IMG/VR virus record: IMGVR_UViG_2609460218_000013
Direction: 5' to 3' (one strand)
Source: a virus
Taxonomy: Duplodnaviria > Heunggongvirae > Uroviricota > Caudoviricetes
DNA: 4,755 bases
Part shown: positions 259 to 4,755 of the stretch, one piece after another
Position numbering within the stretch: position 1 is the first letter of the stretch
Layout of the letters: each line of letters begins with the position of its first letter
Made by a program: the position numbers and the translations under genes
The notes under the pieces: model-generated
What the model was told of the DNA's origin: nothing
Database searches by the model: none
The model's input: the letters and a program-made list of their open reading frames with translations, nothing else

Positions 259-474
259 TTACTCTCCCCGTGCAGCCTTACGCTTGTCTTCTTTAATCTT
301 GAAATAAAGGTTTGTCAGATACGTCAGCATGCCAAATACCAGACTACCCAATACACCTATTGCCGCCCACTGTGAGGGCGTGACTTTATCGAGCAACTGT
401 AAAAACCAGTAGCCAGCACTGCCTGCAGAGGTGCTGTAGGCGATGCCCGTTGTTAACTTATCCATGGATTTCAT
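259..474 (-). CDS. Class II holin / pinholin, phage 21 S21 family (EssD/EssQ-like), 71 aa
   Basis: Translation [71 protein letters not shown] matches the S21 pinholin family in length and sequence: two TM segments, a small-residue-rich first TM, a charged C-terminal tail and the Met1-Lys2-Ser3-Met4 dual start. Strong SD GGAGGTGAGG (486..477) sits 7 nt upstream of the ATG at 474..472. The 99-aa track ORF (259..558) is an upstream over-extension with no RBS. Confidence 0.9.
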
Positions 475-664: not shown

Positions 665-1380
665 CTAAGAAAATCTTGATAAATATTGGTGCGGAGGCAC
701 ACCAAAATATCCTCTAAAAACACTTACAAAATATGATGCATTGTCATACCCGCATATTCCCGCCACCTTGCCGACAGTATGGTTACTGTAGATCAATAAT
801 CTTTGCGCCATCATCATTCGTTCTTCAAGAATTAATTTACTAAACGATAATCCTTCGTCTTTTAATTTTCTTTTTAACAAACTCTCGCTCATATATAATC
901 TTGAAGATATATCACAAAGTCTCCATGACGCTGAGATATCCGAGTGAATAATAGCCTTAACTTTACAACCTAAGCTATTAAGACTTCCGAACAAAAAACT
1001 TTGCACTATTTTCTCTGAAGATAAGACAGCAAGACATGCAAGTGATATTTGATTTCTAACTACATCCACGGTTTTGCTATCACAATTCAAGCATGCAACC
1101 AAGTTCTTTAACAATGAAAAATCTTCACATTCTACTATCAAGTATGACGGATAAAACCTTCTTACAGAAAAAGGATGAGAGTGTGTAGTTTTTAAAGAAA
1201 ATCATTAACTGTTTTCTCCTCAACATCTACGATCATTAGATGATCTGTATTTGACGAAAAAAGATCTTTTAAATTGTATTCAATGAGAACAGCATTTCCT
1301 TTTTTAAACAAAATATCTTCTTTACCAATTCGGACACCAAACGAGTTCAACACCAAAATGATAGAACATATGTATGGCAT
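665..1380 (-). pseudogene. AraC/XylS-family transcriptional regulator (AppY/EnvY-like), disrupted by a -1 frameshift
   Basis: Two track ORFs in different frames (1192..1389 and 665..1141) together give an AppY-like protein of about 238 aa. The N-terminal part (MPYICSIILVLNSF...ILFKKGNAVLIEYN...LMIVDVEEKTVNDF) aligns with the AppY N-terminus; the C-terminal part carries the AraC-type HTH (WRLCDISSRLYMSESLLKRKLKDEGLSFSKLILEERMMMAQRLLIYSNHTVGKVAGICGYDNASYFVSVFRGYFGVPPHQY). The frames join if one T is added to the reverse-strand T4 run (+ strand A4 at 1198..1201), changing NDFL-stop into NDFSLKTTHS. Likely start is ATG 1380..1378 (SD AGGTGG 5 nt upstream) rather than the GTG at 1389 used by the track. 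Confidence 0.75.
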
Positions 1381-1880
1381 ATTATCCACCTGATATCATT
1401 GGGGTTACACCAGGTAAGTATAGGTGGAAAATCAATATTCGCCAGTTCAACAATAAGGAAAATCTCATTGCATCACAACTATAAAACCATGTGTTTAACT
1501 CCAGTTATCGCTCGCCACGGGAATATCTGCGGCAGCAGGCCAGTAATGGGTTAAGTGATAACAGGTGTCTGGAAATATAGGGGCAAATCCAACTCACAAA
1601 AAACAAATCATTAAACTAATCTGTTATATTATAATATCTGCGTGCAATAATAATATTATATGCTCTTAATATTCACTTGAAATATCTTCATATAAAAACA
1701 GATTGAATAAAATCTTTTGGGGCTGGTATGTTTACCAACATTAAATTGCATCTCAATGTTTTCTTTAGCGTGAACAGGATTTTTATAAAAACTGACACTA
1801 TGAGCATCATAGCGTAGTTTTTACGATTGTAAATATCCTGCATACAGGAACTCATCACTTTCAGATGATATCGCATACAG

Positions 1881-2840
1881 TTAATTCACCATCAGTCTTA
1901 GAGCCAGTTCTTCCGGATAGGGATCGAAGTAATTCTGTGTAAGCAAGTAATCATTAGGATACTCACCCAGATAATGCTTCAGCAGAGTCAACGGCGCAAG
2001 AAGAGGCAATGTGCCAAAGCGATAGTTAAGTATAACCTCGCTCAACTCTTTACGCTGGCGTGTACTTAAGTAATTACTAAAATACCCCTGTATATGCATC
2101 AGCACATTCGTGTGATTTTTACGTGATGCTGGTTTTCTGAGAATCGCCATCAGATTATCACGATACACCTCAAAGTATGATTCAAGGTCCGCCCACTCGT
2201 GTATTGCAGCCACAAATGGTCCCATATCTTTATAGCCTGCCTGGCTATGCGCCAACAACTGAAGCTTATAACGACTATGAAAAGCTAATAACTCTCTTCT
2301 TGATAATTTCTCCTTGTAAAGGTGATTGAGCTCATGCAAAGCAAAAACTCTTTCAATAAAATTCTCACGAAGCACTGGATCATGTAATCGCCCATCCTCT
2401 TCAACCGGTAGCCAGGAAAACTTTTCCATCAAAGTGCTCGTAAATAGTCCCACTCCATCTTTACGACCTCGATTACCATTTTCATCATAGACACGCACGC
2501 GCTCCATGCCACAGCTGGGAGATTTAGCACAAACCACAAACCCCGATACATCCTTTAATTTGTCCATATAAGAACGACTAAACTCTGTCATTCTCTCTGT
2601 CACATCCTCATTCTGGTCGTGGCTGAAACATATCCGTATATTTCCTTGCTTCGAGCGCACAAGTCGTAGAGCAGGACGCGGAACTGGCAGCCCTATAGCC
2701 ATTTCCGGACATACTGGTCTGAATGTTACCCATTCCACTAATTTGTCCATTAAAAAGTCATCTCTTTTGTGACCACCATCAAAACGAACAGCAGAACCGC
2801 CCAAACAACCGCTGATCCCAATCACAGGTTTTTTTATCAT
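1881..2840 (-). CDS. DUF523-DUF1722 fusion protein (TudS/RudS-like [4Fe-4S] thiouracil/4-thiouridine desulfidase family), 319 aa
   Basis: Intact 319-aa ORF with SD GGAGG (+ strand cctcc, 2843..2847) just upstream. The N-terminal ~150 aa has Cys12, Cys44 and Cys104 (GISGCLGG, PVCPE, VVCAKSPSCG), spaced like the three cluster-ligating cysteines recalled for TudS-type DUF523 desulfidases, plus nearby Glu46 and Ser107/109. The C-terminal ~170 aa is alpha-helical and basic/aromatic-rich, consistent with a YbgA-like DUF1722 domain. Domain calls are by recall, not profile search. Confidence 0.8.
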   Translation of the reverse strand: MIKKPVIGISGCLGGSAVRFDGGHKRDDFLMDKLVEWVTFRPVCPEMAIGLPVPRPALRLVRSKQGNIRICFSHDQNEDVTERMTEFSRSYMDKLKDVSGFVVCAKSPSCGMERVRVYDENGNRGRKDGVGLFTSTLMEKFSWLPVEEDGRLHDPVLRENFIERVFALHELNHLYKEKLSRRELLAFHSRYKLQLLAHSQAGYKDMGPFVAAIHEWADLESYFEVYRDNLMAILRKPASRKNHTNVLMHIQGYFSNYLSTRQRKELSEVILNYRFGTLPLLAPLTLLKHYLGEYPNDYLLTQNYFDPYPEELALRLMVN

Positions 2841-3032
2841 TTCCTCCCCCTTGACTAATTCATTAACACATAAACTTTGTAGTGCACGGACTAAATTGCC
2901 TTTCTGGCTTCATCACTGACAATTTTTCTGTTATTGACTATTCCTAATATAGTAGGAAAGTTCTTTAAGTGATCGGTCGTACTCATCTATCTTTCATACT
3001 TACTCTCAACTATCAAAAGTACAGGATTTATT
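2841..3032. promoter_or_regulatory. Divergent intergenic / promoter region between the desulfidase-like gene (-) and the lipocalin gene (+)
   Basis: 192-bp non-coding spacer between divergent start codons. Contains a direct repeat of TTGACTA (2851..2857 and 2934..2940), a -10-like CATACT (2995..3000) about 30 nt upstream of the lipocalin ATG, and AGGA (3023..3026) as its RBS. No confident -35/-10 pair could be fixed by eye. Confidence 0.3.
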
Positions 3033-3557
3033 ATGAAGTTATGGCCTGTGTTGACTGGCATTGCACTCTCTTTCACTCTTATAGCATGTAAGGCCCCGAC
3101 ACCACCTAAAGGTGTGCAGCCGATTACAAATTTTGACGCCAACCGCTACCTCGGAAAATGGTATGAAATAGCTCGCCTCGAGAACTGGTTCGAACGTGGT
3201 CTGGAACAGGTCAGCGCTACTTATGAAAAACGGAACGACGGAGGGATTCGCGTACTTAACCGTGGATACGATCCAACGAAAAACAAATGGAGCGAGAGCG
3301 AAGGTAAAGCATACTTTACTGGAGATACTAAAACTGCAGCGTTGAAAGTTTCGTTTTTTGGCCCCTTCTATGGTGGCTATAATGTAATCAAACTGGATGA
3401 TGAGTATAAGTATGCTCTTGTCAGTGGTCCGAACAGAGAATACCTATGGATTCTGGCAAGGACCCAAACTATTCCAGATAATGTAAAAGCAGACTATGTG
3501 CGTACCGCTCAAAAGTTGGGATTCAATGTCAATGAACTATTATGGGTTAAACAATAA
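3033..3557 (+). CDS. blc: Outer-membrane lipoprotein of the bacterial lipocalin (Blc) family, 174 aa
   Basis: N-terminal lipoprotein signal with lipobox (MKLWPVLTGIALSFTLIAC, Cys19). Lipocalin motifs are present: FDANRYLGKWYEIAR (GxW), GKAYFTG, LKVSFFGPFYGGYNVI and YLWILAR. Roughly 55-60% identity by eye to E. coli Blc over the full length. Only + strand gene in the window. The symbol denotes the family; this is a prophage-borne copy, not necessarily the chromosomal blc locus. Confidence 0.9.
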   Translation: MKLWPVLTGIALSFTLIACKAPTPPKGVQPITNFDANRYLGKWYEIARLENWFERGLEQVSATYEKRNDGGIRVLNRGYDPTKNKWSESEGKAYFTGDTKTAALKVSFFGPFYGGYNVIKLDDEYKYALVSGPNREYLWILARTQTIPDNVKADYVRTAQKLGFNVNELLWVKQ

Positions 3558-3585
3558 AATCCCCACCCAAAATGATACTTATTAG

Positions 3586-3612
3586 AAAAAAACCAGCCTT
3601 TGGGGAGGCTGG
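3586..3612 (-). terminator. tR'-like rho-independent terminator downstream of Q (reverse-strand orientation)
   Basis: Perfect 7-bp inverted repeat CCAGCCT (3593..3599) / AGGCTGG (3606..3612) with a 6-nt loop. On the reverse strand it reads CCAGCCT-CCCCAA-AGGCTGG followed by TTTTTTT (+ strand A7 at 3586..3592). It lies about 100 nt downstream of the Q stop at 3713, where lambdoid phages place tR'. There is no U-run on the + strand side, so it is unidirectional. Confidence 0.65.
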
Positions 3613-3671
3613 CTAAATCAGGAAACAAGCTGTTATATGATAATAACTACGTTGCGATTCCAACATTTAAA

Positions 3672-3700
3672 ATGTTAGACTAATGAAAATCAGACAGCAA
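3672..3700 (-). promoter_or_regulatory. Candidate late promoter pR' (reverse strand TTGCTG-N17-TAACAT)
   Basis: Reverse-strand -35-like TTGCTG (3700..3695) and -10-like TAACAT (3677..3672) with a 17-nt spacer, immediately after the Q stop and about 60-80 nt before the terminator hairpin. Placement fits pR' but the hexamers are only moderate matches and alternatives exist. Confidence 0.25.
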
Positions 3701-3712
3701 CTTTTCCTTTAA

Positions 3713-4089
3713 TTATTTCGAACAATCAGCATCCATCTCCAATCGGAGATCCAACACCATCAGCATGCCCTCCACTACGCCCTCAGCTTTCTGGAGCATC
3801 CTGCCAACCCAACAATCAGATCGCCCATGCTTACGTGCAAGCGCCATAAAAGTCATGCCGCCGACATAATAGTCCACCAATAAATCATGTAAATCGCTGT
3901 TGTTTTTTTCAGGCGAGCCATACATTCACAAATGATCATCGCGTCATCGTCACAGCATTGCGGACGAGATCTTACTTTTGAAGGAATTAATCCCTTAAAA
4001 CCGGCGGCAATGGACGACCAGGTCACATCTTCATGATTATTAGCCGCCCATGCCCCCCAACGCTCAAGAACCATCTGAATATCACGCAT
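3713..4089 (-). pseudogene. Phage antitermination protein Q (short QuuD-type, ERWGAW motif), disrupted by a -1 frameshift in an A7 tract
   Basis: Two overlapping track ORFs (3853..4104 and 3713..3925) in frames offset by one. The N-terminal part ([62 protein letters not shown]) has the LERWGAW signature of the Q antiterminator family. The C-terminal part is [63 protein letters not shown]. They join into about 125 aa if the reverse-strand A7 run (+ strand T7 at 3903..3909) were A8. Likely start is ATG 4089..4087 (GGAG 7 nt upstream), not the TTG at 4104. Confidence 0.7.
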
Positions 4090-4106
4090 CAACTTACTCC
4101 ACAAAA

Positions 4107-4755
4107 TTAGGCCAGCACACCAATTGCCAGCGCGCGATCGATAAATCGAAAAATCAGCTCCAGTTGGGAGCCATACTTCTCTTCAAATGCCACGGTATCC
4201 GTATGCAACTCGTCGTGATGCTTTCTGCACAAAGGCAACACAAAGAGATCATGTGCTTTGGTTCCCATTCCGCCCTGCCCGTGACCAATCAGATGATGCG
4301 GATCGTCGGCTGGCATACCGCAGCAAGCACACGGCTGTGTCTTAACCCAGCGTGTGTATTTCTCCTTAACCCAACGGTGACGTTTAGGCAGCTTCATGAA
4401 AGATTCCGGAGACTCTGGATCAACGGTGATGCTTACCACCGTCTTTTCTTGTGATGGGTTTTGTTGCTGGTGGGCGTGAGGCAACGGTGCAAGATTTTTT
4501 GTGCGCTGTTTCAGTATGCTGGTGGCGGTCTGCTCTCCCGGTACGATGTCGCTTTCACGGTACATTGAGCGGATTTTTTCCGCACGCAACCCCAGCGAAC
4601 GACGTAATACCGCTTCCGGTAGCGCGTCCGCCACCTGATTGCGGACCGCCCACCAGGATAATTCAGCCAGAGATAATTCACGCTCCTGCGTACCGCTTAT
4701 TGCGTGACCGATGACGTCAATCATCCATGCTGACAGGTTTTGATGAGCTAGTTGC
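4107..4755 (-). CDS. Prophage protein with C-terminal Cys/His-rich HNH-like motif (DUF968/YdfU-like), 5' partial; N-terminus beyond the right window edge
   Basis: Reverse-strand frame is open from the window edge to TAA at 4109..4107; there is no in-frame stop between 4755 and the first ATG at 4724, so the 205-aa track ORF is probably a fragment. C-terminal motif is [44 protein letters not shown]. Sits directly upstream of Q, where nin-region nucleases sit in lambdoid phages. The overlapping + strand ORFs (4050..4454, 4451..4714) are treated as antisense artefacts. Confidence 0.55.

Follow-up and report, generated by a model that had tools for sequence, protein, structure and literature searches.

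The window, by which we mean the whole 4,755-nt stretch of DNA analysed here, carries on its minus strand a Q antiterminator gene of the QuuD/Q21 type that is split into two reading frames at a run of seven adenines (Table 1; sequence context of the run and of the ORF junction, CTGAAAAAAACAAC). No single uninterrupted frame covers the whole Q domain. The N-terminal ORF reads MRDIQ...CECMARLKK from ATG 4089 and then loses the frame after codon 62, with a TGA 16 codons further on. The C-terminal ORF (3925..3713, minus strand), counted from its first ATG at 3925, comprises 70 aa and ends in ...EMDADCSK.

Table 1. Position and strand of the interrupted Q gene, its parts and its neighbours in the window.
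Feature	Position	Strand	Remarks
Q antiterminator gene, QuuD/Q21 type, PF06530	3713..4089	minus	split by a -1 deletion; intact allele 378 nt, 125 aa
N-terminal ORF, 78 codons	3853..4089	minus	62 native Q residues and 16 out-of-frame residues; TGA 3855-3853
C-terminal half of Q	3713..3904	minus	native residues 63-125 and stop; -1 frame relative to the N-terminal half
A7 homopolymer	3903..3909	minus	T7 on the plus strand; one base is deleted here; the intact allele has A8
GGAG Shine-Dalgarno	4097..4100	minus	7 nt upstream of the Q start ATG 4089; read from the sequence
ydfU, 3' part (DUF968 / HNH-like)	4107..4755	minus	PF06147, E 1.2e-77; adjoins Q upstream, runs off the window end
essD-type class II holin	259..474	minus	PF04971, E 9.6e-34; first lysis-cassette gene downstream of Q
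Intrinsic terminator-like hairpin	3581..3614	minus	AGCCAGCC...GGCTGGTT followed by a T-run; 9-bp stem, 5 GC pairs

The Pfam family PF06530 (Phage_antitermQ) matches the N-terminal ORF over profile positions 1-64 of 118 (E 1e-31, 109.8 bits) and the C-terminal ORF over positions 63-118 of 118 (E 1.8e-13, 50.9 bits). Both scores lie above the curated cut-off of 26 bits, and the two halves jointly span profile positions 1-118. Because they are adjacent parts of one PF06530 domain, we interpret them as one gene with a single-base shortfall and not as a chance juxtaposition. A preliminary description of this DNA had likewise reported two conserved halves of Q that are one base short of each other; the Pfam matches and an intact relative with eight adenines confirm this, all its coordinates are correct, and the full-length Q which it predicted across the junction matches the intact relative exactly (...RLKKNNSD...). 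Judged by its domain matches and its broken frame, the window Q gene is a member of PF06530 by descent and a pseudogene in its present state.

With one A added, the window Q becomes a 125-aa protein identical to WP_001204787.1, an "antiterminator Q family protein". The intact form of this Q shares 86% amino-acid identity with QuuD of Escherichia coli K-12 over 120 residues, and it also matches the Q21 structures 6P18 and 6JNX (E 5e-9; query residues 8-90 against Q21 residues 20-103). Since a GGAG motif precedes ATG 4089, the truncated N-terminal product is probably translated; in the homologue of phage 434B, a ribosome-binding site is annotated at the equivalent position. By direct reading of catttgtgaATG, no Shine-Dalgarno sequence precedes ATG 3925.

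The position of the gene corresponds to that of Q in a lambdoid late region, with ydfU upstream and with a terminator-like hairpin and a holin gene on the same strand downstream. In relatives, ydfU is annotated with 349 aa and essD with 71 aa. The hairpin with its T-run (3614-3591 on the Q strand) lies approximately 100 nt past the Q stop codon, tail to tail with a lipocalin gene. By analogy with lambdoid late operons we infer that it is a tR'-like target overridden by Q; expression of the holin-lysis cassette would require readthrough mediated by Q. Scans of the whole window with Rfam (E-value mode) and for tRNAs returned nothing relevant, with a sub-threshold match at the terminator hairpin. 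A late-promoter consensus scan from the Q stop to the terminator yielded a weak 9/12 site that overlaps the stop codon, and no promoter was assigned. A promoter-like TTTACA-16 nt-TATTAT (10/12; window 3866-3893, minus strand) is located inside Q just 3' of the A-run and may be due to chance.

The gene order in the relatives is hokD, rem, ydfU, Q, lipocalin (opposite strand), a YbgA/2-thiouracil-desulfurase-like gene, an AraC-family gene, essD, ydfR, rrrQ, rzpQ and cspI, with relBE and flxA on the other side. Judged by this order, the layout of the locus is that of the Qin cryptic prophage, but with other cargo between Q and the holin. In the window, the cargo downstream of Q (1881-3557) consists of a Blc-like lipocalin gene on the opposite strand and the YbgA/2-thiouracil-desulfurase-like gene. 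The isolated lambdoid phages IdasGreatGrand and Lambda_2E9 (L101, L102) possess the same lipocalin and YbgA-like cargo at the same position. Because it is present in isolated phages, we regard this cargo as a phage-borne moron module that is not specific to cryptic prophages.

Length variants of the adenine run

The 421-nt Q region has matches in 3561 E. coli records. Of the matches listed, one alone, NZ_AP027865.1, is 100% identical; the next-best 39 of the 3561 span 422 nt, i.e., one base more. Hundreds of E. coli genomes differ from the region by this single A and nothing else. A 79-nt query centred on the run leads to the same picture: it matched 429 complete genomes, and among the matches listed AP027865 alone is exact over the full length (A7), the 59 other matches listed all spanning 80 nt. 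The A8 version of the query recovered 370 records at an identity of at least 99% and 59 at 95-99%. A7 is found in 1 of the 426 complete E. coli genomes in which the site is covered. The identical A7 allele of AP027865 (NZ_AP027865.1) is annotated by RefSeq/PGAP as "antiterminator Q family protein, frameshifted", and among the matches listed this is the only complete RefSeq genome in which A7 was found. The comparison of A8 and A7 among orthologues, for which the preliminary description had called, shows A8 to be the norm and A7 a rare derived allele.

Look-ups of exact products in public contigs provide insight into the wider length spectrum of the run. The exact 78-aa product of the A7 allele is encoded on 77 contigs of NCBI, JGI, ENA and Logan, and all ten A7-product loci that were fetched carry A7. 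A8 was found on at least 1000 contigs, A9 on 27, A6 on two and A10 on one. This spectrum peaks at A8 and falls in both directions, and therefore fits undirected homopolymer slippage and not a selected A7 configuration.

The A7 allele occurs on at least six haplotypes, which are 0-34 SNPs apart. One A8 locus (L004) differs by 1, 2 and 3 SNPs from three different A7 haplotypes; from the window (1591-4755) it differs by 3 SNPs, with T8 in L004 at the site where the window has T7. Between the AP027865 haplotype and the window there are 20 SNPs in 3165 nt, and this haplotype has its own A8 neighbour with 99.9% identity, spanning 3166 nt. The haplotype comparison indicates that A7 alleles are recurrent, rare inactivating slips on different haplotypes. 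Recombination of a short A7-bearing patch could contribute to this recurrence, because the 421-nt Q segment is identical across haplotypes. In the lineage of L006 and L015, A7 is inherited together with a second lesion.

The run itself is interrupted in many relatives. K-12 quuD reads CTG AAA AAG AAC at the site, and IMG/VR relatives with proteins at least 98% identical (n=80) have AAAAAG in 50 cases and A8 in the other 30. In all three isolated phages the run is likewise interrupted, by AAAAAG in IdasGreatGrand and 434B and by AAAAAT in Lambda_2E9. The AAG interruption is synonymous, the AAT interruption non-synonymous. As these relatives indicate, the uninterrupted run is a polymorphic state of one allele lineage at a synonymous site and not a maintained slippery site.

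A possible sequencing error and decay in the prophage

The missing A could be a homopolymer base-calling error, in which case the true genome would have A8 and an intact Q. We consider this unlikely for the window. In favour of an error, the site is an 8-nt homopolymer, and two assemblies, L009 (GCA_949813035.1) and L010 (GCA_025262425.1), display A7 amid 6 and 8 one-base deletions per 5 kb, respectively, located in homopolymers and CCWGG. Because this is a long-read error signature, the A7 and the other apparent frameshifts of L009 and L010 are probably artefacts, and because some public A7 calls are of this kind, there are fewer real alleles than the 77 contigs suggest. At positions 3900-9000 of these two chromosome-scale assemblies, deletions split several prophage genes.

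Against an error in the window speaks an audit of indels in the A7 assemblies, made against an A8 reference, in which the run is the sole indel in 4-5 kb of L007, L008, L011, L013 and L014. On the evidence of this audit, A7 is a real allele in these five. One of them, L008 (GCA_037638355.1, a 28-kb draft contig), is a separate assembly that is 100% identical to window 1591-4755 (3165 nt), A7 included. Since clean independent assemblies carry A7, one of them with the exact haplotype of the window, the A7 of the window is probably not a private error. However, the AraC-family gene of the window has two private 1-nt insertions, which are present in none of the 11 related loci checked there. They therefore raise some base-level doubt, and we allow a small chance that the A7 of the window is an artefact. 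The other indels of the window are insertions, one of them outside a homopolymer, and are in this respect unlike the contractions of L009 and L010. The homopolymer error that the preliminary description had offered as one of the simpler readings hence applies to some public A7 calls (L009, L010), but probably not to the window.

Other parts of the prophage are damaged as well. The AraC-family HTH gene (window 665-1389, minus strand) encodes 237 aa in relatives and is present here as two ORFs of 65 and 158 aa, broken by the insertions at positions 1175 and 1198, which are 23 nt apart. Read on the gene strand, CTCACC becomes CTCATCC and T3 becomes T4; the two changes represent private mutations or, alternatively, errors in base calling. 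The identical 158-aa AraC fragment is also encoded on four ENA contigs, where the lesion is a different one, a 32-nt deletion; these contigs give no support to the insertions of the window. In an ENA metagenome scaffold (L097, 1820-2100), a 32-nt deletion in the AraC-family gene results in the identical 158-aa C-terminal ORF. Judged by these differing lesions, the AraC-family gene is broken independently in several lineages.

A 94-nt insertion in the window (1497-1590) is absent from the closest relatives, L004 and L008. Its sequence corresponds to the 3' ends of IS3-family elements found at thousands of sites in E. coli. AACTC repeats (1497-1501 and 1591-1595) border it on either side, and strain MB20 has a complete IS3-family element at the site. 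The insertion looks like a solo IS end that persisted after an internal deletion; alternatively, it is possibly an assembly collapse across the IS. Other strains show differing lesions in the YbgA-like, DUF968 and AraC-like genes, and the sequence pattern of scattered lesions fits a prophage region under weak or no selection. In NZ_AP027865.1, a second gene annotated as "frameshifted", of the DUF977 family (L001, 2334-2749), is situated 3.3 kb upstream of Q in the same prophage.

Switching, recoding and a split Q as unlikely alternatives

Alternatively, we have to consider that the run acts as a switch of Q. The A8 run that resulted from the synonymous AAG->AAA change might serve as a low-frequency stochastic switch with a sub-1% slippage leak in the OFF state, controlling the opening of the late operon, with OFF alleles selected to silence lysis; we regard this as very unlikely. 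If it were true, the late operon at stake would comprise the YbgA-like and AraC-like cargo and the holin-lysozyme cassette, and the repeated OFF alleles would reflect selection to silence a residual lysis module and not neutral decay. Evidence of selection for a silenced Q would make this locus a small further case of host domestication of cryptic-prophage lysis modules.

A related scenario, in which A8 is kept as a reversible ON/OFF toggle of Q and subpopulations differ in the expression of lysis cassette and cargo, appears highly improbable. In-frame and out-of-frame lengths do occur in natural populations as in contingency loci, such that ON (A8) and OFF (A7, A9, A6, A10) alleles coexist in the species, and the OFF alleles arose repeatedly on different haplotypes. 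But a run of 8 nt is short for high-frequency switching, and OFF alleles make up approximately 0.2% of complete genomes. In addition, the run is not maintained by selection across the family, most relatives examined having AAG or AAT, and the second lesion that accompanies A7 in L006 and L015 resembles decay and not toggling.

The preliminary description had also raised the possibility of a frameshift-gated Q, in which a -1 slip of tRNA-Lys or an A added by RNA polymerase makes full-length Q and thereby gates the late and lysis genes. Such programmed recoding is unsupported, and we rate it as extremely unlikely. If the ribosome slipped back by one base on the second AAA codon, or if one A were added, exactly the ...RLKKNNSD... 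reading would be restored. A_AAA is a recognised tetramer prone to -1 shifts (PMC4066793), and indels in homopolymers, including 8A runs, are partly bypassed in E. coli (PMC3812077). The zero frame at A7, CUG AAA AAA ACA, contains the A_AAA tetramer at the A site within the heptamer G_AAA_AAA, where a G occupies the P-site position and the base at the 3' end is A, not the efficient G. However, neither an SD-like element (GGAG/AGGA-like) in the 20 nt upstream of A7 nor a stimulatory structure 5-9 nt downstream was found. Folding yielded a weak helix near the site, the nearest stable hairpin begins about 40 nt after the A-run, and the 78-mer centred on the site is no more stable when folded than its shuffled versions (z = -0.02).

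The distribution of the run argues in the same direction. Neither the out-of-frame arrangement nor the slippery site is conserved among orthologues: the former is confined to 1 of the 426 complete genomes, and the run is missing from many family members, viable phages included. Programmed transcriptional slippage relies on a long, conserved out-of-frame run, and here the run is A7 only and its out-of-frame state is not conserved. Length variants occur in both the -1 and the +1 direction, and rescue of A9, A6 and A10 would have to work differently or would not be needed, so that no one recoding configuration is conserved.

Published rates are low as well. In E. coli, -1 motifs without stimulators shift at 2-10 times the background of 0.055% (PMC4066793), 0.39% of the transcripts of an A7 run contain a base inserted by RNA polymerase, and rescue of a GFP reporter is undetectable for A runs shorter than eight (PMC6260861). 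Going by these rates, we infer that the leak of full-length Q from the A7 allele would be well below 1% and without function. Any such leak would be unprogrammed, because nothing at the site is conserved. We found no precedent for a frameshifted or recoded Q antiterminator in a search of the literature.

There is practically no chance that the 78-aa N-terminal fragment and the fragment starting at ATG 3925 form a functional two-piece antiterminator, of which we know no precedent: both halves are still ORFs above the Pfam gathering threshold, including the 70-aa ORF from ATG 3925, but this ATG has no Shine-Dalgarno sequence, the two-ORF layout is the plain outcome of a 1-nt deletion and as rare as A7, gene callers report the 70-aa product on 7 contigs only, and the candidate was rejected as lacking both SD and conservation.

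The interrupted Q and known systems

The window Q is very probably the late-gene antiterminator of a Qin-like cryptic prophage that was inactivated by replication slippage at an A8 run. The defective cryptic prophage, which the preliminary description had named as another simple reading, is supported by the Qin-like layout, by A8 as the norm and by the PGAP "frameshifted" flag. One Q allele lineage gained an uninterrupted A8 run, CTG AAA AAA AAC, where other alleles have AAA AAG AAC. This run is a mutational hotspot, with A7 as the commonest length variant and A9, A6 and A10 also found. Loss of one A:T pair from A8, presumably by replication slippage, would have produced the allele of the window, from which translation starting at ATG 4089 is predicted to yield a 78-aa fragment. 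Because this fragment holds the first 62 native residues only, it lacks the C-terminal half of the Q domain. In the absence of Q, late-promoter transcripts would be expected to stop at the terminator-like hairpin and not to continue into the YbgA-like and AraC-like genes or the holin-lysozyme cassette.

Features of this kind are well known, and RefSeq already lists the exact allele as a pseudogene. The proper label for the "interrupted Q" is pseudogene and not recoding candidate, which is mainly a matter of annotation hygiene. A single synonymous AAG->AAA change made a homopolymer at which frameshifts have arisen repeatedly in E. coli and which long-read assemblies also miscall. The locus may likewise serve as a cautionary example, in that an A-run joining two conserved half-genes mimics programmed frameshifting and a comparison of orthologues decides the matter quickly.

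The resemblance to established recoding sites is considerable at first sight. In dnaX, in IS3/IS911 (A_AAA_AAG) and at slippage sites with long A or T runs, an A-rich run is likewise found where one shift, or one base, joins two frames. In contrast to dnaX and IS3/IS911, the site in the window has no conserved out-of-frame arrangement and neither an SD nor a hairpin, and its last base is A and not G. Compared with sites of programmed transcriptional slippage, the run is shorter, and its in-frame A8 version is the common allele.

Among antiterminators, Q of phage 21 belongs to the same Pfam family, PF06530. Q21 acts on RNA polymerase paused near the late promoter. The match between the two is distant, the window-type Q is shorter (125 aa against 162 aa), and the allele of the window can yield the first 62 native residues only. 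The closest known systems are found in cryptic prophages. QuuD (b0551), the Q homologue of the cryptic prophage DLP12 of E. coli K-12, occupies the same place before a terminator and an essD-type lysis cassette, and WP_001204787.1 is the intact allele of Qin-like prophages of E. coli B, HS and many others; in both types of loci, as in the window, Q is located after nin/ydfU genes. The gene of the window differs from both in being one A short and out of frame past residue 62, and K-12 quuD has AAAAAG instead of the A8 run. In its present state, the window Q is of the same kind as the homopolymer-indel pseudogenes of decaying prophages that NCBI PGAP labels "frameshifted", from which it differs in nothing substantive; the single notable point is that one site was hit repeatedly.
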